Part shown: in pieces, positions 10,632 to 54,814 of the stretch
Numbering within the stretch: position 1 is the first letter of the stretch
Layout of the letters: the number at the start of each line of letters is the position of its first letter
Assembly (NCBI GenBank): GCA_039591485.1
Contig: JBDHDN010000001.1
Span: 1 to 62,225 of the forward strand
Direction of reading: 5' to 3'
DNA: 62,225 nucleotides
From: Gemmatimonadota bacterium
GTDB taxonomy: Bacteria > Gemmatimonadota > Gemmatimonadetes > Gemmatimonadales > GWC2-71-9
Made by a program: the position numbers and the translations under genes
The notes under the pieces: generated by a model
What the model was told of the DNA's origin: nothing
Databases searched by the model: none
Seen by the model: only the letters and a program-made list of their open reading frames with translations

Positions 10632-11900
10632 TTACAACGCGGCCGCCACGGCGACGACGGATCCGGCGAGCCAGCCGGCGGTGCGTCCAGTCTGCCAGCG
10701 CAGCCAGCCACGCTCGCTCGAGACCGTGAGCAACGAGAACGCCGTCAGATGCATGACACCCAGTAGGTCACCAAAGCGCGCACTCCAGATCCCCGACACG
10801 ACGAACAGCGCGACCAGGTCGGCCGGCATGCGGAACAGTCCCAGCAGGAACGGGATGGCAACCACCGGACTCCCGAAGATGCTGAGGAGGCCAACCGAGA
10901 GCAGGAGCGGATAATCCGTCACCTCGAGCGGCTTGCCGATGAACCACGCCGCGAACGGGATGAACAGGACGGAGAGGATCTTTCCGGCGTTGGGAAACGG
11001 ATACGCTAGCGGGACCAAGACGTCCGCAGCCCCCTGCGTCTCGGTGTCCGCGCGGTGTGCGGCGAGCAGGGCGCGTACGTCCTCGATGATCATCGGCAGT
11101 ACTGCGAAGAGCTTGCCCGTGGCAAACGCGGTGAGGAGCGTGCCGCGCGTGCGGCCGAGCAGTTCCCGATACCCGAACGGCGAGAGCCCCGCGACGGTCG
11201 CCGGGAACAGCACGAAAGTGAGCAGCACGATCCCGATGGAGAACGTGACCACATACCCCCCGAGACGGAGCCACTCGGCGGGGGAGGTCGTGCCGGCGGC
11301 ACCGGCCGCCAGTGCGAACGTTCCCCACGGCGACAGTCGAATCACGGCGTGGGAGATGTTGCCCAGGGCATCGCTCACCACGTGCAACGGGTCGAGCAGG
11401 CGCCGCTTCTCGCCGAGCGGGATGAGGGCGATGCCGAGGAGGATGCTGAACAGCACCGCCGCAGGCACGACGTTGTTGGCAAGGGCGCCAAACGGGTTGG
11501 TCGGAATGTAGAGACCGAGGAAATCGAATCCAGCGCTGTCCTCGATCAGGCTGGCACTGAAGAACGTGCCTGCCTGCCACTTCGGGAGTGAGAGGGGCAG
11601 CACCACGACGAGCGCAAGCGCGACACCCCACAACACGAGCAGAACCCGGGATCCATGACGGGCGACGTGGGCCGCGCGCTCGTACGTGAAGCCGCCGATC
11701 CTGCAGATGAGCGACACGACGACGTACGGGAGCACCGTCATCTGGAGCAGCCCCACATAGATGTCACCCAGCACCTGGACGGGCGCGCTCCACTCCCCGA
11801 GGAACACACCGAGGGCGATGCCCGCGAGCACGCCAACGAGGATCCGCGTGCCGAGGGTCAGGCGGCGCGGATTGCTACGATCTTCCGGATCCTCCGCCAT
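10632..11900 (-). CDS. Dicarboxylate/amino acid:cation symporter (DAACS/SDF family, GltP-like) with an extra C-terminal hydrophobic segment
   Basis: Track ORF of 422 aa with multiple TM and hairpin segments typical of the SDF family (..VLPYVVVSLI.., ..NAGKILSVLFIPFAAWF..). The C-terminus TAGWLAGSVVAVAAAL ends in TAA. Confidence 0.85.
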   Translation of the reverse strand: MAEDPEDRSNPRRLTLGTRILVGVLAGIALGVFLGEWSAPVQVLGDIYVGLLQMTVLPYVVVSLICRIGGFTYERAAHVARHGSRVLLVLWGVALALVVVLPLSLPKWQAGTFFSASLIEDSAGFDFLGLYIPTNPFGALANNVVPAAVLFSILLGIALIPLGEKRRLLDPLHVVSDALGNISHAVIRLSPWGTFALAAGAAGTTSPAEWLRLGGYVVTFSIGIVLLTFVLFPATVAGLSPFGYRELLGRTRGTLLTAFATGKLFAVLPMIIEDVRALLAAHRADTETQGAADVLVPLAYPFPNAGKILSVLFIPFAAWFIGKPLEVTDYPLLLSVGLLSIFGSPVVAIPFLLGLFRMPADLVALFVVSGIWSARFGDLLGVMHLTAFSLLTVSSERGWLRWQTGRTAGWLAGSVVAVAAAL

Positions 11901-19334: not shown

Positions 19335-19739
19335 TCAACGCTTCCACAACGCGAGATCGCAGTGCCAGGCCATCCGTGCGAAGTCCCGGTCGGTCGTCAG
19401 CATCGTGAGACCGTGGTGGATGCATAGCTGCGCGAAGAGGGCGTCGATCGTGCCGACTTGTACTCCTTTCCGCCGGCAGCGATTGCGCAGCTCCGCCGCC
19501 GCGACGTGGTCGTTGCGATCGGGCGTGACGAACGGCAATACCGAGAAGCGTCGTACGATTGTGTCGCGCGCCCGTGGGCCAGAGAATCCCTGAAGCAGTT
19601 CCTGCAGCACGAGACCAGTCGTGAATACCGAACCGCCGCCCTCGAGCTGCCCCGCGAGCACTTGGACCTCGGCCGTTCGTCCGGTCTCGTCCCGCCTGAA
19701 GGCGAGCGACCACACGCTCGTGTCCGCAAACAGGTTCAC
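19335..19739 (-). CDS. vapC: PIN-domain toxin VapC (pair 1)
   Basis: Track ORF of 134 aa starting MNLFADTSVW.. with the PIN acidic residues (D6, E, ..TTDRDF). Its ATG overlaps the antitoxin stop as ATGA. Confidence 0.85.
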   Translation of the reverse strand: MNLFADTSVWSLAFRRDETGRTAEVQVLAGQLEGGGSVFTTGLVLQELLQGFSGPRARDTIVRRFSVLPFVTPDRNDHVAAAELRNRCRRKGVQVGTIDALFAQLCIHHGLTMLTTDRDFARMAWHCDLALWKR

Positions 19740-19936
19740 CCGCGGCCACGCTCCGACTTATAGTCGAATTCGGGATCCCACTCGAGGCTACCGAAGAGTT
19801 CCAGCAACTTCCGCTGCTGGCGTCTCGCAATGAACTCCTCGAGCGCCCTCGTCACCGCGGCCCTCTTCGTCTTCTCTCCGCTCACTTTGAACGCGAGCTC
19901 CAGCAGTTCGGGATCGAGCGAAAGGTTGGTAGCCAT
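19736..19936 (-). CDS. vapB: VapB-type antitoxin (pair 1)
   Basis: Start at MATNLSLDPELLELAFKVSGEKTKRAAVTRALEEFI.. with a GGAGG RBS; 66 aa. It overlaps vapC by 4 nt. Confidence 0.75.
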   Translation of the reverse strand: MATNLSLDPELLELAFKVSGEKTKRAAVTRALEEFIARRQQRKLLELFGSLEWDPEFDYKSERGRG

Positions 19937-20172
19937 GTGTAGACCTCCACACACAAAGCTACACACGGATTCGATCACCGGCCAGGCCTAGGATTGTTCT
20001 GCACGGTGATGCGGTCATGTCGCCAACGCACCTCGATCGATTGCGTGGCGTACCTGTTGCTCCCGATGGCAGGCTCAACCGCGAGGGGCCGAGCACGGTC
20101 ATTACGTTGGATTCATCCGATGGATAGCTTCAGGGCCGGCCCGAACGCCGACCACGGGGACGCAGGAGCAGC

Positions 20173-21543
20173 ATGACCGAAGAGCGGCAGCCACGACCGA
20201 TCGTCCATCGCATCTGGCGCTCGATCTTCCGCCGGCCGATCGCCGCACGCACAGACCAGGAGCGCAAGTGGGCGGTGGTCAACAACTTCGTCCTCCACTT
20301 CCGGCCGGTGCGAGTGCCGGCCAAGACGCTGACGTACACACACACGTTCGGACTGGGCGGGATGTCATTGGTGCTCGTGGTGCTGCTCGTTGCCACGGGC
20401 GGACTCATGATGTTTGCCTATGAGCCTGCTCCCGGAGACGCCTATCGCTCCGTGCTCGCGTTGCAGCAGGAGACCCTCTTCGGTGGGTTCGTCCGGAGCA
20501 TCCACCATTGGAGCGCCAACTTCCTGATCGTGACCGTGACGCTCCATCTGCTGCGCGTGTTCTTCACGGGCGGCTTCCACCCGCCGCGGGAGTTCAACTG
20601 GGTGCTCGGCGTCGCGCTGCTGCTGTGCGTGATCGCCTCCAACTTCACCGGATATCTCCTGCCCTGGGACCAGCTGTCGTACTGGGCGATCACGATCTCC
20701 ACGGGCATGCTCACGTACGTGCCGCTGATCGGGGAGTGGCTCCAGCGCACGGTGCGCGGCGGTCCCGAGATCGGGCAGGCCACACTGATCATCTTCTACA
20801 CCCTGCACACCACCGTCGTCCCGGTGTTGATCGTGGTACTGATGGGATTCCACTTCTGGCGCGTGCGGAAGGCCAAGGGGGTCGTCGTGCCGCGCGGCCC
20901 CGGTGAACCGATCGACCCCCAGCCGGAGAAGGTCCTCGGTCTCCCGTATCTCATCCTCCGCGAGTTCGTGGTGGCGCTGAGCCTGATCGGTGTCGTGTTC
21001 CTGTTCTCGGCGGTCGTCGGCGCTCCCCTTGGCGAGGCCGCCAATCCGGGCATGAGCCCGAATCCCGCCAAGGCACCGTGGTACTTCATGGGGATCCAGG
21101 AGCTGCTGCTGCACTTCCATCCGACGTTCGCCGCGGTCCTGCTGCCCCTCGCCGGGCTCCTCGCCCTGCTCGCCGTCCCGTATCTCAGCTACGGCGAGGA
21201 CACGTCGGGCATCTGGTTCGCGTCGTATGGAGGACGCGTCCTTGCCAAACAAGCGGCCGTCGCTGCACTCGTGCTCACGCCAGTGCTGGTGATGCTGGAT
21301 GAATGGGTGGTCGACCTGCCCTCGCTGTTGCCCTGGTTGCCGGCAGCGATTAGCAACGGCGTCATCCCGGTTGCGATTCTTGGCGGGGCACTCTGGATCG
21401 CCACACGGTGGCTGCGAACGAAGCGCGCTGCCACCCGGTACGAAAGGATGCAGACCGCGTTCGTCTTCCTGGGGACTGCCTTCGTGGTTCTGACCGGCAT
21501 TGGTGTGTGGTTTCGAGGCGAGGGGATGGGGTTGGGATGGTGA
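20173..21543 (+). CDS. Cytochrome b (fused b6 plus subunit-IV-like) of a Rieske/cytochrome b complex
   Basis: Track ORF of 456 aa with haem-ligand helices ..FVRSIHHWSANFLIVTVTLHLLRVFFTG.. and ..FYTLHTTVVPVLIVVLMGFHFWRV.., plus the PEWY-region equivalent NPAKAPWYF. An AGGAG RBS is present. Confidence 0.9.
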   Translation: MTEERQPRPIVHRIWRSIFRRPIAARTDQERKWAVVNNFVLHFRPVRVPAKTLTYTHTFGLGGMSLVLVVLLVATGGLMMFAYEPAPGDAYRSVLALQQETLFGGFVRSIHHWSANFLIVTVTLHLLRVFFTGGFHPPREFNWVLGVALLLCVIASNFTGYLLPWDQLSYWAITISTGMLTYVPLIGEWLQRTVRGGPEIGQATLIIFYTLHTTVVPVLIVVLMGFHFWRVRKAKGVVVPRGPGEPIDPQPEKVLGLPYLILREFVVALSLIGVVFLFSAVVGAPLGEAANPGMSPNPAKAPWYFMGIQELLLHFHPTFAAVLLPLAGLLALLAVPYLSYGEDTSGIWFASYGGRVLAKQAAVAALVLTPVLVMLDEWVVDLPSLLPWLPAAISNGVIPVAILGGALWIATRWLRTKRAATRYERMQTAFVFLGTAFVVLTGIGVWFRGEGMGLGW

Positions 21544-21554
21544 GGGCCTGCGGC

Positions 21555-21652
21555 GTGCAAGGTGAAGGGTGCAGGGTGAAGGGTGCAGAATGCAGAATGC
21601 AGAATGCAGATCGGAGATTGCAGATCGCAGAGTGCCGAGTGGAGGGTGGCGG
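21555..21652 (+). repeat. Heptanucleotide tandem array A (14 units, GTGCAGA type)
   Basis: The + strand reads GTGCAAG GTGAAGG GTGCAGG GTGAAGG GTGCAGA ATGCAGA ATGCAGA ATGCAGA TCGGAGA TTGCAGA TCGCAGA GTGCCGA GTGGAGG GTGGCGG. It begins about 11 nt after the cytochrome b stop. Confidence 0.9.
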
Positions 21653-21883: not shown

Positions 21884-22465
21884 GTGAGTCGGAAACGCAA
21901 GGCAGCTAGCAGGAGAACGCGGCAAGCCCCGGTTCCCCCCGTCGAGCCGGATCGGGAGCCGGGTACGCCGGCACCACGGCTTGATCCCGATGCACGAACT
22001 GGCTCTCGCCGTTCGTTCCTCTGGAAGACCTGGCTCGGGCTGGCAGCTGTGGCTGCCGCCGAGGTTGTCTGGGTCGTCGTCAATTTCGCACGGCCCCGAA
22101 GGGCTCAGGCCGACGAGTCACTGATCGTCGTGGCCGGGCCGATCGAGCGGTTTGAACCGGGCACCGTCACCGCATTCCCGCAGGGCAAGTTCTATCTCGT
22201 CCGGCTCGACGATGGCGGCTTCCTCGCAGTGTCCCGCGAGTGCACCCACCTCGGCTGCACCGTCCCGTGGGTCGAGGCCGAGCGGCAGTTCGTGTGCCCC
22301 TGCCACTCGTCGGCCTTCGACATCCGCGGTGACATGGTGAATCCACCGGCGCCGCGCGCGCTCGATCTGTACGAAGTCCGGATCGAGAACCGCGTGGTGA
22401 AGGTCAACACCGCGAACGCCGAGCGCCGTGCGACGTTCGAGCCGGGGCAGGTGATCCGGACGTGA
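21884..22465 (+). CDS. Rieske [2Fe-2S] protein with a Tat-type signal
   Basis: Track ORF of 193 aa with cluster boxes CTHLGC and CPCHSS and the twin-arginine motif SRRSFLW. The GTG start is uncertain because about 40 basic residues precede the Tat motif. Confidence 0.85.
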   Translation: MSRKRKAASRRTRQAPVPPVEPDREPGTPAPRLDPDARTGSRRSFLWKTWLGLAAVAAAEVVWVVVNFARPRRAQADESLIVVAGPIERFEPGTVTAFPQGKFYLVRLDDGGFLAVSRECTHLGCTVPWVEAERQFVCPCHSSAFDIRGDMVNPPAPRALDLYEVRIENRVVKVNTANAERRATFEPGQVIRT

Positions 22466-24843
22466 GCGACCGTCCAGTCCACCCGACCGTGGCTGACAAG
22501 TCGGCGGTGGAATCGGGTGCCGGGCCGGCGGCACCTGGCACGGATGAAGAGCAGGCGCTCACCCACTGGCTCACGCTCGGGGTCGTGGCGACGGCTGCGA
22601 TCGTGCTGTCGTTTCCGCTTTACCTCGTCCGCGATCGTCTCACGACGCCGGCGACCGCCTCGGATGGTACGGCGCCGACCTTCGTCGGCCGCGAGCAGTG
22701 CATCGACTGTCACGAGTCCGCGTACGAGGCGTGGAAGGGGTCGGATCACGACAACGCCATGGACGTCGCGACCGACAGCACCGTGCGTGGAGACTTCGCC
22801 GATACGGAGTTCACCCACGACGGCGTGACAAGCCGGTTTTACCGGCGCGACGGCAAGTTCTTCGTGCTCACAGAAGGTCCGGGCGGCGAGATGGGCGAGT
22901 TCGAGATCACGCACACCTTCGGCTGGGAGCCGCTGCAGCAGTACCTAGTGCCGTTTCCCGGAGGCCGGCTCCAGGCACTCGGCATCGCCTGGGACACCGA
23001 GCGCAACGAGTGGTTCGACCTCTATCCCGATCAGGACATCCCGGCGAGCGACTGGCTGCACTGGACGCGCAACGCGCAGAACTGGAACGGCATGTGCGCG
23101 GAATGCCACTCGACGAACCTGATCAAGGGATACGATCCTCACACGGAGACCTTTTCCACCACGTGGTCTGAGATGGACGTGAGTTGCGAGGCGTGCCACG
23201 GACCGGGATCACGCCACGTCGCGTGGGCGGACATGCCGGAGATGGCCCGACCGGGGATCGAGAACTACGGCCTGCTGATCGGCAGCAGCGACATGTCGGC
23301 GGAGCAGTACGTCGAGCTGTGCGCTCCCTGTCACGCGCGGCGCACGGAGCTCGGCGACTACGACCACACGAGCCCGCATCTCATGGACAACGTGCTCCCC
23401 GCGGTGCTGCGTGAGGGACTGTACCATGCGGACGGTCAGATCCTCGACGAGGTATACGTCTACGGATCGTTCGTGCAGAGCAAGATGTACCGCATGGGTG
23501 TGAAGTGTGCCGACTGTCACGACGCCCACAGCCTGCAGCTGCACGAGGATGGCAATGCGCTTTGTACGCAGTGTCACCGGGCCGACACCTACGACAGTTA
23601 CGACCACCACTTTCATCAGAAGGTTTACCAAGGAGAGCCCAGCGACGGCGCCCTGTGCGTGAAGTGCCATATGATGGAGCAGCCGTACATGGTGATCGAC
23701 TGGCGCGCCGACCACAGTCTCCGACTGCCGCGTCCAGATCTGACCCAAGAGATCGGCGTGCCGAACGCCTGTACCCAAAGCGGTTGCCACGACGACAAGC
23801 CGCTGTCGTGGTCGCTCAGGTCCTACCGCGAGTGGTACGGCACGGCAAAGCGGCCGCATTACGGTCAAGTGTTCGCCGCGGCGCGGGACGGTGCGCCTGC
23901 GGCGAGGGATCAACTGATCAAGATCGCCGGCGATCCGCTCTATACCGCGATCGTGCGTGCCACCGCGCTGACGTTGCTCGAGAGCTACCCGGGCGACACC
24001 ACAACCGAGGCGTTCAATCAGGCACTCGCCGACGAGGATGCGCTCATCCGCTACACTGCGCTCTCGAGCCTGTCCGCGGGCTCCGGCGAGGGCTACGTCG
24101 AGCTGGTCTCCCCGCTGCTGTTCGATCCGGTCAAGGCGGTGCGCATCGAGGCGGCAGCCAGGCTGGCTGGAGCACCCGATGGACTGTTGCAGCCGTACCA
24201 ACGGGACGCGCTCGCGGCAGGCTTGGACGAGTACGAAAGGACGATGGCGTACTCGCTCGACTTCTCCTTCGCCGGGCACAACCTCGGCAACCTGTACGCT
24301 CGGCTTGGCGACGCGACCCGGGCGGAGCGGTACTACCGTTCGGCCGTCGAGGTGGACGACCTGTTCTATCCGGCCAAGGTCAACCTCGCCGTGCTGCTGA
24401 ACTCGCAGCGACGCAACGAGGAAGCCGAGCGCTTGTTACGCGACGTCGTGCGCGACTACCCCGAGCAGTACGACGCGGCGTATTCGCTCGGCCTGTTGCT
24501 CGCGGAGATGAATCGGATCGAGGAGGCCGTCGAGTTCCTCGGTATGGCTTCGACCGGGATGCCGGAGCGTGGGCGGGTGCATTACAACTACGGTCTGGCG
24601 TTGCAGTCGGTCGGACGGATACCCGAGGCGGAGGCCGCGTTGCGGCGAGCGGTCGCGACCGAGCCGCGGAACCCAGACTTTGTGTTCGCGCTCGGCGATC
24701 ATTATTTGCGACGTGGGAATGCGCAGCGCGCGCTCGAGCTGGCGAACCGCCTGCGCGACATCAATCCTGCAAGTCAGACCGCAGCGCAGCTCCGGGCCGC
24801 GGCGCAGGCCGCGCTGGCGAGGGAGCCGGGCGGTAGCGGGTAG
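22462..24843 (+). CDS. Multihaem c-type cytochrome (cytochrome c554-like N-terminal half) fused to HEAT/TPR repeats
   Basis: Track ORF of 793 aa with seven CxxCH motifs (CIDCH, CAECH, CEACH, CAPCH, CADCH, CTQCH, CVKCH) plus a possible CX4CH (CTQSGCH). The C-terminal half has TPR-like repeats. Its GTG start overlaps the Rieske stop as GTGA. Confidence 0.85.
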   Translation: MSDRPVHPTVADKSAVESGAGPAAPGTDEEQALTHWLTLGVVATAAIVLSFPLYLVRDRLTTPATASDGTAPTFVGREQCIDCHESAYEAWKGSDHDNAMDVATDSTVRGDFADTEFTHDGVTSRFYRRDGKFFVLTEGPGGEMGEFEITHTFGWEPLQQYLVPFPGGRLQALGIAWDTERNEWFDLYPDQDIPASDWLHWTRNAQNWNGMCAECHSTNLIKGYDPHTETFSTTWSEMDVSCEACHGPGSRHVAWADMPEMARPGIENYGLLIGSSDMSAEQYVELCAPCHARRTELGDYDHTSPHLMDNVLPAVLREGLYHADGQILDEVYVYGSFVQSKMYRMGVKCADCHDAHSLQLHEDGNALCTQCHRADTYDSYDHHFHQKVYQGEPSDGALCVKCHMMEQPYMVIDWRADHSLRLPRPDLTQEIGVPNACTQSGCHDDKPLSWSLRSYREWYGTAKRPHYGQVFAAARDGAPAARDQLIKIAGDPLYTAIVRATALTLLESYPGDTTTEAFNQALADEDALIRYTALSSLSAGSGEGYVELVSPLLFDPVKAVRIEAAARLAGAPDGLLQPYQRDALAAGLDEYERTMAYSLDFSFAGHNLGNLYARLGDATRAERYYRSAVEVDDLFYPAKVNLAVLLNSQRRNEEAERLLRDVVRDYPEQYDAAYSLGLLLAEMNRIEEAVEFLGMASTGMPERGRVHYNYGLALQSVGRIPEAEAALRRAVATEPRNPDFVFALGDHYLRRGNAQRALELANRLRDINPASQTAAQLRAAAQAALAREPGGSG

Positions 24844-24872: not shown

Positions 24873-25304
24873 CTACGACATCGTGGGATCCATCAGCCGC
24901 AGGCCGGGAAAGAGCAGGAAGTCCCGATCGGTCGTGCACAGCGCGGCACCATGCTCGAGCGCCAGCGCCGCAAAAGCGGCATCCATCACCAGCGGGCCGG
25001 CGACCTGCGCCGTCTGCAGCAGATCCTGCAGAATCACCCAGAACCGCTCGCCGGGATTGAGCAGGCCGACCGCCGGCGCCTCAAGCCACGCAGCAACGAT
25101 CCTCCGCGCCTCGTCCGCTCGTAGCGGGGACTCGAAGACCCTGCTGCTCGTGCTGATGCGGATGAACGCGAGGATCGTGGCCCATGCGAGCCACACGGGT
25201 GTCGGGCCGGTGAACCCCCGTTCGACCCAATCGCGACACCGGTCGTGCTGGGCCGAGCGAGGGTGATACGCGTACAGCAGCACGTTGGCGTCGACCAGAA
25301 TCAT
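24873..25304 (-). CDS. vapC: PIN-domain toxin VapC (pair 2)
   Basis: Track ORF of 143 aa starting MILVDANVLLYAY.. and containing ..CTTDRDF... It overlaps the upstream antitoxin by 4 nt. Confidence 0.85.
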   Translation of the reverse strand: MILVDANVLLYAYHPRSAQHDRCRDWVERGFTGPTPVWLAWATILAFIRISTSSRVFESPLRADEARRIVAAWLEAPAVGLLNPGERFWVILQDLLQTAQVAGPLVMDAAFAALALEHGAALCTTDRDFLLFPGLRLMDPTMS

Positions 25305-25549
25305 CGGTGGTGCGGCCCTTCCACCTGCTCGATCAACTCGGCAATGCTGTCCAGCTGCACTCCCGCCTTGAGGGCTCCGAGGTCCCGCGCCTCGACGCGA
25401 AACGGCTCGCGTCGCTCTGGCACACGCCGTGGTGTCAGGGCCTCACGCAGTAGCTCGTTGACGGTGGCCTTGAGGCTCTTCCCGGTTCGGCGCATCCTCG
25501 CCCGCAGCTTGGCAGCGACGTCATCATCAAGCGTAAGTGTAGTTCTCAT
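25301..25549 (-). CDS. vapB: VapB-type antitoxin (pair 2)
   Basis: Start at MRTTLTLDDDVAAKLRARMRRTGKSLKATVNELLREAL; 82 aa. The 5' extension of the track ORF is unsupported. Confidence 0.7.
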   Translation of the reverse strand: MRTTLTLDDDVAAKLRARMRRTGKSLKATVNELLREALTPRRVPERREPFRVEARDLGALKAGVQLDSIAELIEQVEGPHHR

Positions 25550-25569
25550 AATGGAATACTGAACCATTG

Positions 25570-25673: not shown

Positions 25674-26066
25674 CTATACGACCTCCACCGTTGCCTTGTG
25701 CCCGGGCGCCGCAGCTAAGCGCTGATCACGCGTCACGAGCGGTACCGCCAGCACCTCGGCAAGAGCGACGTACGCCGCGTCGTACGCGGAGAGGTTATGG
25801 CGTAGCTCCCAGACCCTGAACAGGAGCAGATCATGCCGGTAGCGTGTTATCGGGAAGTTCACCATGTCTGTGACCGCTTGCCGTCCGCGCTGTACGGAGA
25901 GCTCCTGAGCCACGGCCAATCGTCGGATGGCGTGCACAGCTTCGATGTCGATGATATGCGGCGCGTGCAGCGATACACGCTCTGCGAGAATCCGCTCCTC
26001 GACACGCAGGCCGACCGTCGTACGGAGCAGTACCTCGAGCACTGCCGAAGCATCGACGACAATCAC
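25674..26066 (-). CDS. vapC: PIN-domain toxin VapC (pair 3)
   Basis: Track ORF of 130 aa starting MIVVDASAVLEVLL.. and containing ..LVTRDQRL... It overlaps the antitoxin by 4 nt. Confidence 0.85.
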   Translation of the reverse strand: MIVVDASAVLEVLLRTTVGLRVEERILAERVSLHAPHIIDIEAVHAIRRLAVAQELSVQRGRQAVTDMVNFPITRYRHDLLLFRVWELRHNLSAYDAAYVALAEVLAVPLVTRDQRLAAAPGHKATVEVV

Positions 26067-26293
26067 CTGCGATCGCGCCCCTCTCGAATCATCTGCGCCG
26101 GTGACACACTCGGCTCGATCGGAGTGCGTGACGCCAGCATCTCCCGGAACTCCGCAACCGACGGTCGCTCGGCCTCCCGCTTCAGCTCCCGGATGAGATA
26201 GTCGGACAGGCTCATCCCCTCAGCCGCTGCCCGCGCCTTGAGCTTGCGGTGCAGCCAATCGGGCACGTTTCGGATCTGGATCATCTTAGACAT
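26063..26293 (-). CDS. Ribbon-helix-helix/FitA-like antitoxin (pair 3)
   Basis: The sequence MSKMIQIRNVPDWLHRKLKARAAAEGMSLSDYLIRELKR is the classic IRNVP..LK.RA pattern. The start is ambiguous (26293 or 26284). Confidence 0.7.
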   Translation of the reverse strand: MSKMIQIRNVPDWLHRKLKARAAAEGMSLSDYLIRELKREAERPSVAEFREMLASRTPIEPSVSPAQMIREGRDRR

Positions 26294-26499
26294 GTAGCCA
26301 ACATGCATGCGCTGCACATGTCAAACAACCTTTCAGCGCGCAGGGATGGTCATGACCGCCTGAACATTGGAGTCGCCTCGGCGCTCACCAAGCCGAATCC
26401 TTCCAGATGGGGACCATTCCCTGACGACCCTGGTCCCGGCCATCCGGCCGGTGGATATTCCCCACGTCTCAGTTCGAGCCCAAAGGAGACCACACCGGC

Positions 26500-27180: not shown

Positions 27181-28355
27181 CCGACGCCCTGTACCTCGCA
27201 TGGCGCTACCTCGCCTACCACAAGGTGAAGACGGCGATTCTCGTCACATCGATCACCTTGATCGTGTTCCTCCCGGTGGGGCTGCGCGTGCTGGTTCGCC
27301 AGAGCGAGGAGCAGCTCACGGCGAGAGCGGCGGCGACGCCGCTCCTCGTAGGCGCCAAGGGGAGCCCGCTCGAGCTGGCGCTCAACAGTCTGTACTTCGA
27401 AGGCGACGTTCCCGAGACGATGCGCTATGTGCAGGCCATCAGGGTCGATACGTCGGGCCTCGCGCTGGCGATTCCTCTCTACGTTCGGTTCGAGGCGCAG
27501 GGTCATCCCATCGTCGGCACGACGCTCGAGTACTTCGACTTCCGTGGGCTTGGCATCGCGGCCGGCTCCGGGCTCACGATGCTGGGCGACTGCGTGCTGG
27601 GCGCACGGGTTGCCGAGGTACTCGGTGTGGGACCTGGCGATCGCGTGATCTCCTCGCCGGAGAGTGTGTTCGACCTCGCGGGCGTCTATCCGCTGCGGAT
27701 GCACGTGCGGGGCGTGCTCGAGTTCTCCGACAGTCCGGACGACCTCGCGATCTTCGTGGATATCAAGACCGCGTGGGTGATCGAAGGACTGGTGCACGGA
27801 CACGTGGACCTGAGCACCCCGGAGGCCACGACGCAGGTGCTGCAACGCGACAGCACGAACGTGGTAGGGAACGCCTCGGTGGTGCAGTATCAGGAGATCA
27901 CCGCCGACAACCTGAGCGAGTTCCACTTTCACGGTGACCAGGGGGAGTACCCCATCACCGCAGTCATCGCCGTGCCGCCCGATCAGCGCGCCGGTACGAT
28001 TCTCCGCGGCCGCTACTCGTCACCCGATGATCTGGTGCAGATCATCGAGCCCACCGCGGTCATCGATGAGTTGCTGGACATGGTGCTCACCGTGCAGACC
28101 TTCGTGATCGCGGCGGTGGTCGTCGTGGGAATCTCGACCCTTGCCACCGCCATCCTCGTCTTCATGCTGTCGCTCCGGCTCCGACGCCGTGAGATCGAGA
28201 CGATGCGCAAGATCGGTGGCTCCCGCGCCAGCATCGGGTGGGTGATGGTTTCGGAGATCGTCGTGGTGCTCGTGTCGGGTGTGGTGCTCGCCGGCGGTCT
28301 CACCGCGGTCACGAGCCGCTTCGGATCGGCGGCGATCAGAGCGGTGATATTCTGA
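27177..28355 (+). CDS. ABC transporter permease, FtsX/MacB-type
   Basis: Start at MTDALYLAWRYLAYHKVKTAIL, with the ATG overlapping the ATPase stop as ATGA. It has a large periplasmic loop and a C-terminal FtsX-like 3-TM bundle (..LRRREIETMRKIGGSRASI..). Confidence 0.8.
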   Translation: MTDALYLAWRYLAYHKVKTAILVTSITLIVFLPVGLRVLVRQSEEQLTARAAATPLLVGAKGSPLELALNSLYFEGDVPETMRYVQAIRVDTSGLALAIPLYVRFEAQGHPIVGTTLEYFDFRGLGIAAGSGLTMLGDCVLGARVAEVLGVGPGDRVISSPESVFDLAGVYPLRMHVRGVLEFSDSPDDLAIFVDIKTAWVIEGLVHGHVDLSTPEATTQVLQRDSTNVVGNASVVQYQEITADNLSEFHFHGDQGEYPITAVIAVPPDQRAGTILRGRYSSPDDLVQIIEPTAVIDELLDMVLTVQTFVIAAVVVVGISTLATAILVFMLSLRLRRREIETMRKIGGSRASIGWVMVSEIVVVLVSGVVLAGGLTAVTSRFGSAAIRAVIF

Positions 28356-28414
28356 AGATCGCAGAGTGTAGACCGGTGATTGCAGATCGGCGATTGTCAA
28401 CTGCCGATCGCTCA
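28352..28414 (+). repeat. Heptanucleotide tandem array B (about 9 units)
   Basis: The + strand reads CTGAAGA TCGCAGA GTGTAGA CCGGTGA TTGCAGA TCGGCGA TTGTCAA CTGCCGA TCGCTCA. The first unit contains the permease stop codon TGA (28353-28355). It shares the exact units TCGCAGA and TTGCAGA with array A. Confidence 0.75.
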
Positions 28415-28445: not shown

Positions 28446-29357
28446 ATGGGTCGCACCTACCTCCTCGCGGCTTCCACATTCCTCCTCGCCTGCGGGAGCG
28501 GTGACGCTCGTCTGTCCTCCGGCGAGTCCGAGACCGACGTACCTACGGTCTATACCGTCAACTACCCACTGCAGTACTTCGCCGAGCGCATCGGCGGCAA
28601 CCTCGTGGACGTCCAGTTTCCGGCGCCGGCCGACGTGGATCCCGCCTTTTGGAAACCGGATTCCGAGGCCCTGGCCGGGTACCAGCGAGCGGATCTGATC
28701 CTGCTCAACGGCGCGACGTACGCCAAGTGGCTGGCGGTGGTGACACTCCCCGAATCGCGACTGGTGAACACCTCCGCGGGATTCGAGGACCGCTACATCA
28801 ACTTGGAGAGTGCCGTCACCCACTCGCACGGGCTTGGTGGAGAGCACTCGCACGAAGGCACCGCCTTCACGACATGGCTTGATCCCGCACTCGCGGTCGC
28901 GCACGCTCGCTCGATCACCGGTGCGTTCGTCGCCCGATGGCCGGAGCACGAGGAAGTATTCGAGGCCGGCCTCCAGTCGCTCGAAGCCGACCTGCTCGCA
29001 CTCGACCGCGAGATCGTGGAGATCACGGCACGGGACCCGAGCAAGGTGTTGCTCAGCTCTCACCCGGTCTACCAGTACCTCGCTGCTCGGTACGCTCTCG
29101 AATTGCACGCCATGCAGTGGGAGCCGGACGAACCCCCATCTGAGGCGCAGTGGCAGGCCTTCGCGGACCTGTTGGCCGATCATCCGGCACAGTGGATGCT
29201 GTGGGAAGCCGAGCCGCTCGCCGAGACCGCCGCTCGACTGCGAGCACAGGGTGTGGAGCCCATCGTGTTCGATCAGTGCGGCAACGTGCCGAGTGAGGGA
29301 GACTACCTGAGCGTCATGCGGCACAACGCGCAGAGCCTGGCGCGGGCCTACCGGTAG
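28446..29357 (+). CDS. ZnuA/TroA-family metal-binding lipoprotein
   Basis: Start at MGRTYLLAASTFLLACGS (lipobox). Family pattern VYTVNYPLQYFAERIGG..ADLILLNGA..; a His-rich loop HSHGLGGEHSHEG is present. Confidence 0.8.
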   Translation: MGRTYLLAASTFLLACGSGDARLSSGESETDVPTVYTVNYPLQYFAERIGGNLVDVQFPAPADVDPAFWKPDSEALAGYQRADLILLNGATYAKWLAVVTLPESRLVNTSAGFEDRYINLESAVTHSHGLGGEHSHEGTAFTTWLDPALAVAHARSITGAFVARWPEHEEVFEAGLQSLEADLLALDREIVEITARDPSKVLLSSHPVYQYLAARYALELHAMQWEPDEPPSEAQWQAFADLLADHPAQWMLWEAEPLAETAARLRAQGVEPIVFDQCGNVPSEGDYLSVMRHNAQSLARAYR

Positions 29358-29405
29358 GCGGACGGGCGGATGGAGGGACGGGTGGACGGACGGATGGACG
29401 AGACG
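29358..29405. repeat. Octanucleotide tandem repeat (6 units, NNGGAYGG)
   Basis: GCGGACGG GCGGATGG AGGGACGG GTGGACGG ACGGATGG ACGAGACG follows directly after the TAG of the ZnuA-like gene, in a convergent intergenic spacer. Confidence 0.7.
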
Positions 29406-29437
29406 CGGCGGTAGCCGGGTGAAGCTCCGGATCCGGC

Positions 29438-38469: not shown

Positions 38470-38895
38470 GACGCAAGGCTCGGCACGGGATTCTCGAAGC
38501 TTCGAATGCCGCACTCCACGCTTCGAGCGGCGCGATTCAAGGCTCGACCGACTCGGTTGAAGCTTGGAGTTGGCCGGTTCAAGCTTGGATCAGCTCTCCC
38601 GAAGCTTCGCGGGTGCGGTCCGGAAGCTCGAATGCCCTGATCGAAGCTTGGAATAGGTCATCCAAGCTCCCGGAGGGCGCTCGTCGCGGTTGGAGTGTGC
38701 TGCTTGCAGCTTCGACCGGGTCGCTCGAAGCTTCGAGTCGGCCGTTTCAAGCTTCGACCGGCTCACTCCAAGCGTCGAGAGGGCCGTCTCAAGCCGCGGG
38801 CAGGCCGGGCCAAGCGTCGGCCGGCCCCGCCCAAACCTGCGGTCGGCCGGTCACTGCTCGGGGCGGGCCGATCCGCCCTGGGGGTTGCGCTTGAG
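38470..38895. repeat. Tandem array of about 20 copies of a 21-bp unit with a palindromic AAGCTT core
   Basis: AAGCTT-like cores sit at 38475, 38497, 38518, 38539, 38560, 38581, 38602, 38624, 38644, 38664, (degenerate ~38686), 38707, 38728, 38749, 38770, 38791, 38812, 38833, 38854 and 38875. Perfect palindromes are TCGAAGCTTCGA (38494-38505) and CTCGAAGCTTCGAG (38724-38737). Units degrade toward the 3' end. Confidence 0.85.
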
Positions 38896-39385: not shown

Positions 39386-39743
39386 TGCACGCGCGGTGGT
39401 CGGGCGACTCAGGGCGGTAGCGCAGGCGCTCTGCGCACGCGACCCCAACGTCGTCGCGGTCGTCCTGTTCGGATCACTGGCGCACGGTATCCCCACGCCG
39501 GCCAGCGATGCCGACCTCCTCGTCGTCCTGCGCAGCGATGCGAGACGCGTGCTTGACCGCATTCCGGATTGGACGCGGCCGTTCGAGACTCCTGGCCTCG
39601 CCATCCAGATGTTGCCATGGACCCTCGACGAGTTGCGCCGGCGACTCGCGGCCGGTCAGCGATTTGCCCGCGAGGTCATCGAGACCGGTATCGTCTTGGG
39701 GGGAAGCTTGCCCAAGGACTCGGGTCCGCGCAGCGACTCCTAG
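39342..39743 (+). CDS. Minimal nucleotidyltransferase (MNT, antitoxin-like component)
   Basis: Track ORF of 133 aa with the NTase motif VVLFGSLAHGIPTPASDADLLVVL. It overlaps the HEPN gene by 44 nt if the ATG at 39342 is used. Confidence 0.8.
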   Translation: MPNGFSPTAPVTVLDARAVVGRLRAVAQALCARDPNVVAVVLFGSLAHGIPTPASDADLLVVLRSDARRVLDRIPDWTRPFETPGLAIQMLPWTLDELRRRLAAGQRFAREVIETGIVLGGSLPKDSGPRSDS

Positions 39744-39744
39744 C

Positions 39745-39784
39745 CGTCGGACCGTCTTACCGTCCTACCGCCCTACCACCCTTC
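39745..39784. repeat. Octanucleotide tandem repeat (about 5 units, CGYCYTAC)
   Basis: CGTCGGAC CGTCTTAC CGTCCTAC CGCCCTAC CACCCTTC fills the 42-nt convergent spacer between the MNT stop (39743) and the porin stop (39786). Confidence 0.6.
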
Positions 39785-39785
39785 G

Positions 39786-41012
39786 TCACATCGAGATGTC
39801 CCACTGCATCCGGAAGCGCCAGCCGTCTTCGCGGTCGGTAGCCTCTTCGCCGAACGCGAACAGCGACGCCTCGGCGGTGAGCTTGTTCAAGTGTCCCCGG
39901 AAGAACCAGTTGACCGCGAAGGAGAGCTCCTGCTGGAGATCGTTGGGGAGAGCGGTGTTGGGATTGTAGAACGCGTGGCGCACTGCCAGCTCGAGCTGGG
40001 GTGGAATCGCCGAGGTGACCCCGTGCAGGAAGTAGCCGACCTGGGCGTAGTTTCCGATCAGCGTCGTGACCGTCGCGTTCACCTCGTCGTCAATGCGCTT
40101 CCAGTGGAACTCCTGTTGCCACGAGAGGCCGCGGTACATGAACGCGGTTTCGGCGAGCCACTGGTATACCCGATACTGACCCCGCTGCCCCTCCGGGAAC
40201 CCCTCGAGCTGGCCGCCGCCATCCTGCGAGAAGCGGGTGTACGGGCTGCGGTTGGTCACGGCGGCAAGCGCGATCAGTGCCTCCGGCTCGTCACGCCCAG
40301 CAACATCCGATCCCGTAAACGGGAGCACGCGGCCGAACAGGTTCCACTGCAGCCGGCCCATCCACATGAGGTACTTGTCGTCGTTCTCGGTGGCGCCCCG
40401 ACCCATGCCGGTGAACACCGAGGCCCAGTAGCTGACGTCCGCGCCGCCACCCCCGCGTAGCCTGCCATACAGAGAGAGTCCCTGCTGGCGGTCCAGCGTG
40501 AACGGCCGGGTGAGGAGCGAACGGTCGGCCATCTGTTGCTGTCCCGAGGAAATCACCCGCTCCCGATTGTAGTGCGCCTTCCACTGGCCTGCCTTGAGCT
40601 TCAGCCCGGGGAATCGCTCCACCATGACGCGGAAGTCCAGCAAGTTGGACGCGGCCAGCTCGTACTCGAAGAAGTAGCCGAGCCAGGGCCGGTACGCGTG
40701 CCCGCCGATCTTGAGCCGGGCACGGTTCACCTTGAACACGTGCTGTGGATCGCCCTGGAAGTCCTCGAGGGTGGCCGAGCTCTGATCCCGCGGGTAGGCG
40801 TAGCGGAACTGCACCCGCGGCTGGATCTGAATCAGAAAGTTGCCGTCTCGCGAGCGGAGCTCGAAGCCCTTGCTGCCCCACCCAACGAGCGGGATCGTGT
40901 CCCCGGCTGAGGCACCGTCACCGGTCGATTGCGCGGCGGCCGGCGACACCACCCAGGCCGCTCCCACCAGAACGGCGATGGCAACACGCATGATGCGGCG
41001 GTGGTATGACAT
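39786..41012 (-). CDS. Phosphate-selective porin O/P family outer-membrane channel
   Basis: Start at MSYHRRIMRVAIAVLVGAAWVVSPAAAQ. Family pattern ..FELRSRDGNFLIQIQPRVQFRY..RARLKIGGHAY..WKAHYNRER..; the C-terminus is ..WRFRMQWDISM. An alternative start lies at 40991. Confidence 0.8.
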   Translation of the reverse strand: MSYHRRIMRVAIAVLVGAAWVVSPAAAQSTGDGASAGDTIPLVGWGSKGFELRSRDGNFLIQIQPRVQFRYAYPRDQSSATLEDFQGDPQHVFKVNRARLKIGGHAYRPWLGYFFEYELAASNLLDFRVMVERFPGLKLKAGQWKAHYNRERVISSGQQQMADRSLLTRPFTLDRQQGLSLYGRLRGGGGADVSYWASVFTGMGRGATENDDKYLMWMGRLQWNLFGRVLPFTGSDVAGRDEPEALIALAAVTNRSPYTRFSQDGGGQLEGFPEGQRGQYRVYQWLAETAFMYRGLSWQQEFHWKRIDDEVNATVTTLIGNYAQVGYFLHGVTSAIPPQLELAVRHAFYNPNTALPNDLQQELSFAVNWFFRGHLNKLTAEASLFAFGEEATDREDGWRFRMQWDISM

Positions 41013-41833
41013 CAGCGCGAGATCACCGCCACCTCGCGCGATCCGAGCGGCTGGACCGGCCGGTTGTTCGCCGGCATTGCAGCATCGAGCGCCGCTATCT
41101 GCTCGGCGGACGCTCGCAGTGGCTCGGTGAGCACCGCCCAATGCACTCCTTCCGAGCAGGGCGGCGTGGTGAGCGATCCCTCATAGCGATAGTACTCGTC
41201 CCCACTGGTGATGAACGCGTCAACGTCGATCTCGACGTCCTCGAAGTGGCGCTCCTCGCCGGCTGCCGAGGGGAGGCCTTCGATGAGGGCGTCGAACACC
41301 AGATTGGGCTCACCCTCCTCGACGAACACCCCGAGCACAGCCAGCTCGCCGGCTTGCGCACGGTGGACCAGATGCAGCTCCATCGGATAGTGCCGGCCAT
41401 CGATCGTGTGCTCCGAGGGAGCATGGAAGTGAAACTGCAGCAGCTCGTACTCGATCCCCCCCGCGGTCAGCGTCCTCCCCTCGTCATACGTGACCTGGAT
41501 GGTATGGCCGTTGTCGAGGATGTCGACCACGTGCTCGTGCCGGGCGATCGAGAGCGCGCCGGTGCCGTAATCCCACATGAGCCCGGTTCCCTCTCCCGCC
41601 GCCATCGGCAGGGCCTCACCCAGATCGATCGGCGACTGCATGGTTCCGTTGGCGCACAGCGCAAAGTCGTCACTCAACTCGGCCCAGTGCTCGGGCCCCT
41701 CGTCTCCCTCATAGCCCCACTGCAGTGTCGCTCCATGCTCCTGATCCGCCTCCTCCGCAGCTCCACACCCCAAAAAACCGAGCATGAGCACGGTGCCGAC
41801 CGCACAGGCAATACCACGCGTCATGTGGCTCAT
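41012..41833 (-). CDS. Alpha-class carbonic anhydrase lipoprotein
   Basis: Track ORF of 273 aa with lipobox LGFLGCG; WGYEGDEGPEHW, QSPIDL, QFHFHAPSEHTIDGRHYPMELHLVH and SLTTPPCSEGVHW are present. A GGAGGAG RBS is present. Its stop shares one base with the porin ATG. Confidence 0.9.
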   Translation of the reverse strand: MSHMTRGIACAVGTVLMLGFLGCGAAEEADQEHGATLQWGYEGDEGPEHWAELSDDFALCANGTMQSPIDLGEALPMAAGEGTGLMWDYGTGALSIARHEHVVDILDNGHTIQVTYDEGRTLTAGGIEYELLQFHFHAPSEHTIDGRHYPMELHLVHRAQAGELAVLGVFVEEGEPNLVFDALIEGLPSAAGEERHFEDVEIDVDAFITSGDEYYRYEGSLTTPPCSEGVHWAVLTEPLRASAEQIAALDAAMPANNRPVQPLGSREVAVISR

Positions 41834-51643: not shown

Positions 51644-51713
51644 TAGTCATTCTGCACTCTGCATTCAGCATTCTGCACTCAGCACTCTGCACTCTGCACT
51701 CTGCATTCCCTCA
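51644..51713 (-). repeat. Heptanucleotide tandem array C (about 10 units)
   Basis: The plus strand reads TCTGCAC TCTGCAT TCAGCAT TCTGCAC TCAGCAC TCTGCAC TCTGCAC TCTGCAT TCCCTCA, so the minus (sense) strand reads GTGCAGA/ATGCAGA. The first unit on the sense strand contains the DUF3604 copy-2 stop. The array fills most of the spacer to the sulfatase-2 RBS. Confidence 0.85.
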
Positions 51714-53659: not shown

Positions 53660-53722
53660 TCTGCATTCTGCATTCTGCGTTCTGCATTCTGCGTTCTGCG
53701 TTCTGCGTTCTGCACTCTTCAC
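53660..53722 (-). repeat. Heptanucleotide tandem array D (9 units)
   Basis: The plus strand reads TCTGCAT TCTGCAT TCTGCGT TCTGCAT TCTGCGT TCTGCGT TCTGCGT TCTGCAC TCTTCAC, so the sense strand reads ATGCAGA/ACGCAGA/GTGCAGA. It overlaps the stop codon (53719-53721) of the upstream glycine-zipper gene. Confidence 0.85.
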
Positions 53723-54772: not shown

Positions 54773-54814
54773 CCCTCACCCTTCACTCTTCACCCCGCGT
54801 TCTGCACTCTTGAC
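54773..54814 (-). repeat. Heptanucleotide tandem array E (6 degenerate units)
   Basis: The sense (minus) strand reads GTCAAGA GTGCAGA ACGCGGG GTGAAGA GTGAAGG GTGAGGG, starting about 18 nt after the DUF4136 stop. The units match the 5' part of array A. Confidence 0.6.

Follow-up and report, generated by a model that had tools for sequence, protein, structure and literature searches.

Purine-rich heptanucleotide arrays behind stop codons in a Gemmatimonadota bacterium and in other bacterial phyla

Introduction

Why should a run of short, nearly identical units stand directly behind a stop codon with its purine-rich strand facing the message? The question is raised by a locus on contig JBDHDN010000001.1 (assembly GCA_039591485.1), of which a stretch of 62,225 nucleotides (nt) was analysed; this whole stretch is called the window. 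Behind its cytochrome b gene lies a tandem array of heptanucleotides, A1, which a sequence-only reading had presented as the founding member of a five-locus, strand-locked, intercistronic family acting in the mRNA. The window has a G+C content of 65%, and named homologues of its cytochrome b place the host in the Gemmatimonadota.

Heptamer repeats of bacteria were first noted in 1990, and catalogues of them date from 2007. The window contributes a new data point, the motif family RTGCAGA/GTGAAGR in the phylum Gemmatimonadota. The asymmetry of such arrays at the level of the transcript or of translation is real and general, and their anchoring to stop codons across phyla is the part most worth pursuing. 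A scan across phyla sharpens a rule reported earlier for three genomes: the arrays hug stop codons, with the purine-rich strand as the mRNA, even in roomy convergent spacers. This directs the search for a mechanism to the place where translation ends.

Five heptamer arrays in one window

The arrays, A1 to A5, are the following.

21555 to 21652, plus strand: A1, heptamer array of 14 units, GTGCAAG GTGAAGG ... ATGCAGA x3 ... GTGGCGG
28352 to 28414, plus strand: A2, weak degenerate period-7 patch, CTGAAGA TCGCAGA GTGTAGA ... TTGCAGA TCGGCGA
51644 to 51713, minus strand: A3, heptamer array of ATGCAGA, GTGCAGA and GTGCTGA units, lag-7 identity 47/63
53660 to 53722, minus strand: A4, heptamer array of 9 units, GTGAAGA GTGCAGA ACGCAGA x3 ATGCAGA ..., lag-7 identity 50/56
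54773 to 54814, minus strand: A5, short heptamer array of 6 units, GTCAAGA GTGCAGA ACGCGGG GTGAAGA GTGAAGG GTGAGGG

A1 begins 11 nt past the stop codon of the cytochrome b gene (TGA, 21541-21543), and the 14 units originally read there hold letter for letter. Its centre is pure (GTGCAGA, then ATGCAGA three times), and the units become increasingly degenerate toward both flanks. Identity at a lag of 7 nt is 71/91, against a window-wide mean of 24.2 (standard deviation 5.0); 0.002% of window positions attain the value of A1. Tandem Repeats Finder assigns period 7/14 to A1 and likewise to 51651-51705 and 53660-53718. A sliding lag-k scan of the 62 kb yields three stringent lag-7 regions, A1, A3 and A4; among lags 3 to 15 a comparable set appears only at lag 14, the double period, which gives these three regions again. 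A scan of this kind with a randomised comparison had been proposed along with the original description; on the window, it returns the three regions as against none in 50 second-order Markov simulations. A strict unit pattern, [GAT][TC]G[CAG][AG]G[AG] at least three times in tandem, matches only 21562-21631 (+), 51686-51706 (-), 53660-53722 (-) and 54773-54807 (-) in the window, A5 fitting it over 5 consecutive units.

The five-locus family is thus a real multi-locus family, with five loci of the preferred unit in the window and orthologues in relatives. Of the four companions first proposed for A1, three (A3, A4 and A5) are solid. A2, with a lag-7 identity of 29/56 and a purine fraction of 0.54, is a marginal, weak member and best read as a decayed relic.

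All five arrays stand between co-directional genes, and every flanking pair is supported by Pfam: cytochrome b and Rieske for A1, an FtsX-like permease and ZnuA for A2, DUF3604 and a sulfatase for A3, a glycine-zipper protein and DUF3604 for A4, and DUF4136 and DUF2059 for A5. Lying between Pfam-supported open reading frames (ORFs), the upstream ones of which finish at or before the array starts, the arrays are non-coding. At each of the five the purine-rich strand is the sense strand, flipping with the strand of the genes, as had been claimed. Their beginnings also bear out the description, according to which they start at the upstream stop or within about 20 nt of it: the first unit of A2, A3 and A4 contains the upstream stop TGA (that of DUF3604 at 51713-51711 for A3, that of the glycine-zipper gene at 53721-53719 for A4), and A5 begins 17 nt past the DUF4136 stop. 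From the end of the array to the downstream start there are 59-66 nt for A4 and A5 (66 from A4 to DUF3604) and about 230 nt or more for A1.

The arrays comprise 6 to 14 units without any copy-number preference, and their core units (ATGCAGA, GTGCAGA, ACGCAGA) carry no G-tract. From A1 to A5, the dinucleotide YC occurs 3, 7, 0, 0 and 1 times on the sense strand and 25, 10, 13, 10 and 13 times on the antisense strand. The sense strand had been said to be free of stop codons. This is not the case; TGA, contributed by GTGAAGR and GTGCTGA units, is found 2, 3, 4, 1 and 3 times in A1 to A5, respectively. A stop trap in three frames, in which GTGAAGA would offer a TGA every 7 nt, was nevertheless rejected as a general account, pure ATGCAGA runs and, elsewhere, GCAGAAG runs being devoid of stops. 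A CsrA sponge was rejected as well, the core units having no GGA motif.

When either strand of the arrays is folded as RNA, the z-scores range from -0.4 to -1.8, no better than those of shuffled sequences. Consensus scans reveal no promoter or terminator near any of the five arrays, Rfam 15, scanned at gathering score, has no match anywhere in the window, and permissive Rfam scans around the arrays give chance-level matches elsewhere and none on an array. Readings of the arrays as hairpins, as REP/BIME-like elements or as intrinsic terminators are out; the arrays fold no better than shuffles and bear no terminator-like site. The earlier characterisation of the units as non-palindromic and not REP-like stands as far as folding is concerned, although the unit does include a self-complementary tetranucleotide, TGCA. 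A phase-variation contingency repeat is also out, since the arrays begin at or after stop codons and no promoter consensus accompanies them.

Purine-rich arrays of period 8

Two further tandem arrays of the window belong to the same picture.

29358 to 29411, plus strand: purine-rich tandem array of period 4/8/12, GGACGGAT-like, directly after the ZnuA stop TAG (29355-29357), in a convergent spacer
39738 to 39782, minus strand: purine-rich array of period 8, GGTAGGGC GGTAGGAC GGTAAGAC ..., in a convergent spacer

The second of them begins about 7 nt past the stop codon of the minus-strand gene 39786-41141. Both follow the positional rule of the heptamers, that is, purine-rich on the sense strand and adjoining a stop. 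A ranking of 41 genes by the purine content of the 60 nt that follow their stops has A4, A1, A3, 29358-29411 and 39738-39782 in its first five places; the mean purine fraction behind the 41 stops, 0.52, is unremarkable. Because these two period-8 arrays adjoin stops in convergent spacers and are among the top purine tracts, the phenomenon of the window is one of purine-rich short tandem arrays behind stop codons, neither strictly heptameric nor strictly intercistronic. The label "intercistronic" given to the family is therefore not supported; besides the two related arrays in convergent spacers, the cytochrome b-Rieske gap (about 340 or 505 nt, see below) is no tight junction.

Orthologous spacers and strain polymorphism

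A relative with the same gene order and a DUF3604 protein of 92% amino acid identity (L559) has arrays at all three orthologous spacers, those of A3, A4 and A5. They adjoin the stop on the same strand as in the window, with different unit variants and counts. Thus, GTGAAGA GTGAAGA GCGCAGA GCGCAGA GTGCGGA in L559 compares with GTGAAGA GTGCAGA ACGCAGA x3 ... in A4; at the A3 spacer the L559 array is degenerate and at the A5 spacer it has 7 units. L559 carries an extra GCAGATT-type array behind its sulfatase stop, where the window (sulfatase-to-DUF502 spacer) has none; its GCAGATT/GGCGATC array is similar to A2. L560 shows no synteny at the relevant spacers.

Arrays also recur behind the cytochrome b stop. 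In L124 (cytochrome b 84% identical at the amino acid level) the stop is followed by TTGCAGA TGGAAGA TTGCAGA GTGCAGA and a GTGAAGA patch, and in L126 (76%) by GTACAGT GTGCAGT GCGCAGA GCGCAGC. No recognisable array follows the stop in L123 (78%), and in L125 (73%) the genes overlap, leaving no spacer. Alignment of the cytochrome b-Rieske spacers across the relatives shows conservation at the gene ends only and no conserved element outside the repeats. The comparison of orthologous spacers that the sequence-only reading had in mind thus finds arrays in L559, L124 and L126 and none in L123. A lag-7/8 scan free of motif bias, over about 75 kb of the relatives, turned up only purine-rich arrays on the sense strand. 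In L126 the cytochrome b-Rieske spacer is about 750 nt long, and between two short heptamer patches it contains a 21-nt unit (GACGTCGACAACAGGCGTGGG-like) repeated in tandem about 10 times (L126 positions 11400-11640).

Near-identical strains differ by whole units. In L681, A3 is longer by two GTGCAGA units, and in L682, A4 is shorter by two units (14 nt), the flanks of A3 and A4 being otherwise about 99.5% identical between these strains. A5 is identical in L681 and L682, and A1 and A5 are invariant among near-identical strains. Since whole units are gained and lost, cores are pure while flanks have decayed, and position is kept while sequence turns over, A1 and its companions behave as simple-sequence repeats (SSRs) evolving by slipped-strand mispairing. 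The whole-unit variation makes the arrays useful as strain markers; they also appear to break short-read contigs.

An assembly artefact or a chance low-complexity patch has a negligible probability. One contig of the near-identical strains does break exactly at A3. However, A1 is 100% identical in two other assemblies of the Joint Genome Institute (JGI; L001 and L002), so that three metagenome assemblies, independent of one another, agree on it. Relatives sequenced in other projects have orthologous arrays, no array attains the length of a typical read, and the 50 Markov simulations produced nothing comparable. The sequence-only reading had itself named collapsed reads as an outcome fatal to its claim. 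The broken contig is that of L682 (sample 3300041074), whose 3' end is the stop codon where A3 begins (window position about 51711); this suggests that heptamer arrays break short-read assemblies.

Stop-codon anchoring across phyla

To what extent the arrangement seen in the window is general was addressed in the GTDB, scanned at one genome per species with four GCAGANN units. The scan gave at least 120 loci, of which about 90 arrays were examined. The orientation test takes arrays with strong neighbouring genes, called with a self-trained codon-usage heuristic that reproduces the JGI calls in the window; its figures, and those for the composition of the array-bearing genomes below, hold among the matches listed.

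One third of the arrays (33%) begin within 25 nt past a same-strand stop, compared with 4.8% at random intergenic placement. Within this distance 32 arrays lie on the same strand as the stop and 3 on the opposite strand (p = 4e-7). Conversely, no same-strand start codon falls within 25 nt of an array (0/94 in the first test, 0/97 in the refined one). Divergent spacers are depleted (5/73, against 21% expected) and convergent spacers enriched (29%, against 20% expected), and even in convergent spacers with hundreds of free nt the arrays lie 0-15 nt from the stop of the gene to which they are sense.

Other sets agree. In viral contigs the same:opposite ratio beside stops is 27:5 for GCAGA arrays, in a listing of at least 120 loci, and 28:10, 14:4 and 4:3 for control cores. 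Heptamers without a GCAGA core, oriented by their purine content, give 14:2. Metagenome contigs give 15:5, a figure of low weight since the contigs are mostly short and 53 of 119 arrays were called "coding". The three GCAGA sets together amount to 78:14 (p = 6e-12). This same-strand bias beside stops, in the genomes as in the pooled sets, points to an asymmetry linked to transcription or translation and not just to the DNA. In co-directional spacers as a whole, sense and antisense arrays number 28 and 19 in genomes, and 16 and 21 in short, poorly annotated metagenome contigs; among other Gemmatimonadota matches, three of four are antisense or edge cases. Strand locking is hence a strong rule for arrays adjoining stops, and a statistical, not an absolute, one for all arrays. 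The claim that locking and anchoring go together carries over from the window to other genomes in the neighbourhood of stops, but not to co-directional spacers in general.

These counts bear on a role for the arrays as sites of ribosome standby, re-initiation or processing that would couple the downstream to the upstream gene, which had been one of the functions suggested at the outset. The arrays indeed offer AUG or GUG in all three frames, as was noted then, some units resemble Shine-Dalgarno sequences (GGAGG, AAGG), and the five heptamer arrays of the window lie between co-directional genes in short spacers with no predicted terminator. However, arrays keep away from starts and are found in places that have no cistron downstream, the two related arrays of the window being cases of the latter, so such a role is very unlikely. 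Moreover, TGA codons interrupt the arrays, the pure core units (ATGCAGA and, elsewhere, GCAGAAG) lack a Shine-Dalgarno core or start codons, and the genes downstream of A4 and A5 have strong Shine-Dalgarno sequences of their own, 59-66 nt past the arrays.

An element acting on the DNA, be it by 7-bp phasing (three units making two helical turns), as a nucleoid-protein site or as a replication or recombination signal, would fit the strongly intergenic and period-specific character of the class and the 14- and 21-bp super-periods additionally returned by Tandem Repeats Finder. Rehm et al. 2015 (PMC4692102) weighed non-canonical DNA structures such as G-quadruplexes for G-rich heptamers. We regard this reading as improbable: an element of the DNA alone should be indifferent to the orientation of the neighbouring gene, yet the arrays flip with the gene strand while the GC skew keeps one sign throughout the 62 kb, and the sense bias beside stops in the GTDB genomes is again at odds with it.

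Distribution and choice of the unit

Loci with a GCAGA core occur in Cyanobacteria, Acidobacteriota, Planctomycetota, Chloroflexota, Bacteroidota, Gemmatimonadota, Actinomycetota and others. In 930 kb of array-bearing genomes, period 7 accounts for 186 arrays and every other period from 4 to 12 for at most 11. Unrelated units make up 58 of the 186 heptamer arrays, including the STRR unit CCCCAGT and AACTGAT. In IMG/VR, scans with permuted cores found at least 120 loci for GACGA, 79 for GGACA and at least 120 for CAAGG, compared with at least 120 for GCAGA. Because permuted cores form heptamer arrays about as often, as far as such lower bounds tell, the GCAGA core is not special, and period 7 is a general property. 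The idea that the core is a conserved signal was dropped on these similar lower-bound counts.

Pairs of inverted arrays of the same unit, 20-150 nt apart, were met at several loci (L009 130-288, L078 14-147, L105 5674-5766; further pairs in L565, L604, L621, L622, L627 and L635). Where the neighbouring genes could be called, as in L105, each array is sense to, and nearest to, the stop of its adjacent gene; at contig ends (L009, L078) the neighbours are not classifiable. Such pairs could form a long imperfect hairpin resembling a bidirectional terminator.

Origin and persistence of the arrays

On balance, the arrays are probably heptanucleotide SSRs made by slippage, of the long-SSR class of large GC-rich free-living genomes, that persist behind stop codons. 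Slipped-strand mispairing would create the arrays and keep remodelling them, whole 7-nt units coming and going, while point mutations would wear down their edges. They persist in the first untranslated nt behind the stop, in the orientation in which the G/A-rich strand, nearly without YC dinucleotides, is the mRNA. Presumably, the transcript of the upstream gene includes them as a purine tract without structure, of which no set copy number or exact sequence is required. The copy-number polymorphism between near-identical strains implies that no fixed architecture is needed.

The bias presumably originates at the point where translation stops, leaving the nascent RNA naked. Two causes may be envisaged. 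Hybrids between a purine-rich RNA and its template are unusually stable, and R-loops are known to make repeats more unstable. Expansion might thus be favoured at this boundary, naked purine-rich RNA forming stable RNA:DNA hybrids (R-loops) that would promote slippage. Alternatively, the C/U-rich orientation might be counter-selected, for instance as a Rho loading site. We rank the R-loop version first, because a Rho filter alone leaves the stop-hugging in roomy convergent spacers unexplained.

Several points weigh against this explanation. The five arrays of the window share one unit family (RTGCAGA/GTGAAGR), which slippage on random local seeds does not predict and which may be a sign of dispersal or of a sequence-specific factor. 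The persistence of arrays behind cytochrome b in relatives, in spacers whose remainder is unalignable, could reflect selection rather than regeneration at a hot spot. Nor does slippage account for the preference for 7 nt. Finally, the orientation bias is weak away from stop codons, and the heuristic gene calls are noisy on short contigs.

The shared unit family has its best account, possibly, in a functional cis-acting RNA element, namely a multivalent landing pad in 7-nt register for a protein that binds single-stranded RNA. The binder might be a cold-shock domain (one per heptamer) or a ring of the HutP/TRAP type, and it would tune the stability, the processing or the 3'-end fate of the upstream mRNA. 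One unit family is present at five loci of the window and in relatives, arrays keep to the same spacers though the surrounding sequence diverges, the sense and stop-adjacent bias extends across phyla, the RNA is predicted to be unstructured and so accessible, and CspB reportedly binds direct repeats of a heptamer, one protein to each unit (PMC4679880). On the other side, near-identical strains differ in copy number and some orthologous spacers have no array (L123; the sulfatase-to-DUF502 spacer of the window), which weighs against a strict requirement. Other genomes mix many unrelated units, and the permuted cores, judged by their lower bounds, are about as common. Cold-shock proteins prefer pyrimidine-rich strands, and no candidate for the binding protein was identified, HutP/TRAP homologues not having been searched for. 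Taken together, we consider the landing pad unlikely, if still worth keeping in view.

A wider and bolder proposal starts from the occurrence of post-stop purine-rich heptamer arrays in Gemmatimonadota, Acidobacteriota, Planctomycetota, Chloroflexota, Cyanobacteria and Bacteroidota. These might constitute a functional element common to the phyla, a module of the 3'-untranslated region that serves, in 7-nt register, a ubiquitous single-strand nucleic-acid binder or exploits R-loops formed at the end of translation. If so, the element would control the fate of mRNA 3' ends or the uncoupling of transcription from translation, and the preferred unit, RTGCAGA in the present genome, would have co-evolved separately in each genome. 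This is a long shot. The function in the mRNA that the sequence-only reading had argued for thus survives in the form of an asymmetry linked to transcription or translation; the specific functions it listed are disfavoured or, at best, candidates.

Neighbouring genes and other repeats of the window

The genes on either side of A1 are as follows.

20173 to 21543, plus strand: cytochrome b gene, upstream of A1 (Pfam PF00033/PF13631, JGI gene call)
21884 to 22465, plus strand: Rieske [2Fe-2S] gene, downstream of A1 (Pfam PF00355; alignment with L123 and L124)

The start of the Rieske gene is most likely the GTG at 21884, judging from a conserved VSRKRK N-terminus, while the JGI call puts it at 22049; the cytochrome b-Rieske gap is about 340 nt with the former start and 505 nt with the latter. 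The third gene of the cluster (22462-24843) encodes a 793-amino-acid protein, kept in all relatives examined, with multihaem cytochrome c motifs (Cytochrome_C7, c3, paired CXXCH) and a C-terminal TPR array. The cluster is flanked by genes for PIN-domain (VapC-like) toxins at 19335-19978, 24873-25562 and 25674-26317, each preceded by a small antitoxin gene (VapB, RHH or FitA-like).

The DUF3604 gene between A3 and A4 is split into two overlapping ORFs in the window (52625-52892, around 52784) because, compared with L682, one nucleotide of a G run is deleted (GCTGTC-GGTGAG). It is intact in L682 and L559 (632 amino acids in the latter), and L681 shares the frameshift, which marks either a genuine pseudogene carried by some of the population or an error in a homopolymer. 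Two in-frame indels are also found in the gene: 27 nt near the N-terminus (about 53555) are present in L681 and L682 and absent from the window, and 48 nt at about 52423 are present in the window and L681 and absent from L682. Elsewhere, a 42-nt tandem repeat with a 21-nt sub-period occupies 38708-38794 (2.1 copies, 84% match).

Comparison with known heptamer repeats

The contingency-locus SSRs of host-adapted pathogens share with the present arrays a slippage-driven gain and loss of whole units and copy-number polymorphism between strains. However, they lie inside reading frames or promoters and switch expression, whereas the arrays described here stand behind stops and affect neither a frame nor promoter spacing. 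HutP and TRAP act on the 5' leaders of Bacillus operons, HutP sites consisting of NAG triplets with 4-nt spacers (period 7) and TRAP sites of GAG/UAG repeats. A CAG or AAG triplet every 7 nt on unstructured RNA is common to these sites and the arrays, an analogy of mechanism alone, homologues of the two proteins not having been searched for.

The STRR sequences of heterocystous cyanobacteria were reportedly described in 1990 by Mazel et al. They share with the present arrays the tandem heptanucleotides, the intergenic location and the many copies per genome, and the STRR unit CCCCAGT is met beside GCAGA arrays in cyanobacterial loci. STRR designates, however, specific cyanobacterial units (CCCCAGT, TTGGTCA, CAACAGT); with RTGCAGA/GTGAAGR units in Gemmatimonadota, the window arrays differ in both unit sequence and taxon and are not members. 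PMC4692102 cites STRR for Calothrix PCC 7601, as three heptanucleotides repeated in tandem.

MacGregor 2015 (PMC4679880) described TAACTGA direct repeats just upstream of start codons in Beggiatoaceae, Cyanobacteria and Bacteroidetes and listed S1, cold-shock proteins (CspB, one per heptamer) and CsrA as candidate binders. These too are intergenic direct repeats of a heptamer, strand-specific with respect to genes and scattered in phylogeny, for which a post-transcriptional role has been proposed. Unlike the arrays of the window, which adjoin stops and never starts, they precede start codons by a few nt and seem to stand in for Shine-Dalgarno sites. The distances from array to start given above for A1, A4 and A5, like the absence of a same-strand start within 25 nt of the arrays from other phyla, place the arrays outside this class.

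The same anatomy is that of the GGGNATC repeats of Xanthomonas and Nostoc (Rehm et al. 2015, PMC4692102). These prefer spacers between aligned ORFs, are depleted in divergent ones, lie within 50 bp of a stop on the coding strand and are mostly transcribed. Sister species share the spacers, with extensive variation in length and sequence, and the neighbours belong to no particular function class. The preference for aligned-ORF spacers, the divergent depletion, the persistence in the same spacers with varying length and sequence and the lack of a tie to any gene function class are features of the arrays described here as well. In contrast, the GGGAATC and GGGGA(C/T)T units contain G-tracts, form G-quadruplexes and prefer four units, while RTGCAGA arrays have neither G-tracts nor a preferred copy number; and the former also occur close upstream of ORFs on the non-coding strand, which is not seen here. 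A G-quadruplex heptamer class, with a tract of at least three G per unit and four units preferred, does not accommodate A1 to A5.

Both PMC4692102 and PMC4679880 credit Mrázek 2007 with the finding that heptameric SSRs are over-represented among prokaryotes and with its explanation by polymerase slippage. As the LSSR5-11 class of Mrázek, Guo and Shah 2007 is represented in these two papers, it has in common with the present arrays the 7-nt unit, the longer-than-chance arrays, the intergenic location, the large GC-rich genomes of non-pathogens and a proposed origin by slippage; its genome-specific preferred unit at many loci may have a counterpart in the five loci within 62 kb, and its definition, so represented, makes no use of stop-codon anchoring. 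The arrays of the window display tandem units beyond chance, a non-coding site and whole-unit instability of copy number, as LSSR5-11 repeats do. Neither the RTGCAGA/GTGAAGR unit nor a Gemmatimonadota host is mentioned where these two accounts deal with heptamer repeats, and when full texts were searched for the repeat strings themselves, only eukaryotic primer-type matches and no bacterial paper came up. The sequence-only reading had taken the family for undescribed, with STRR as its only analogue. Heptameric SSRs are in fact a documented class, and the GGGNATC repeats have the same anatomy; the arrays belong to this described class, and what is new is the unit family RTGCAGA/GTGAAGR and the phylum Gemmatimonadota.

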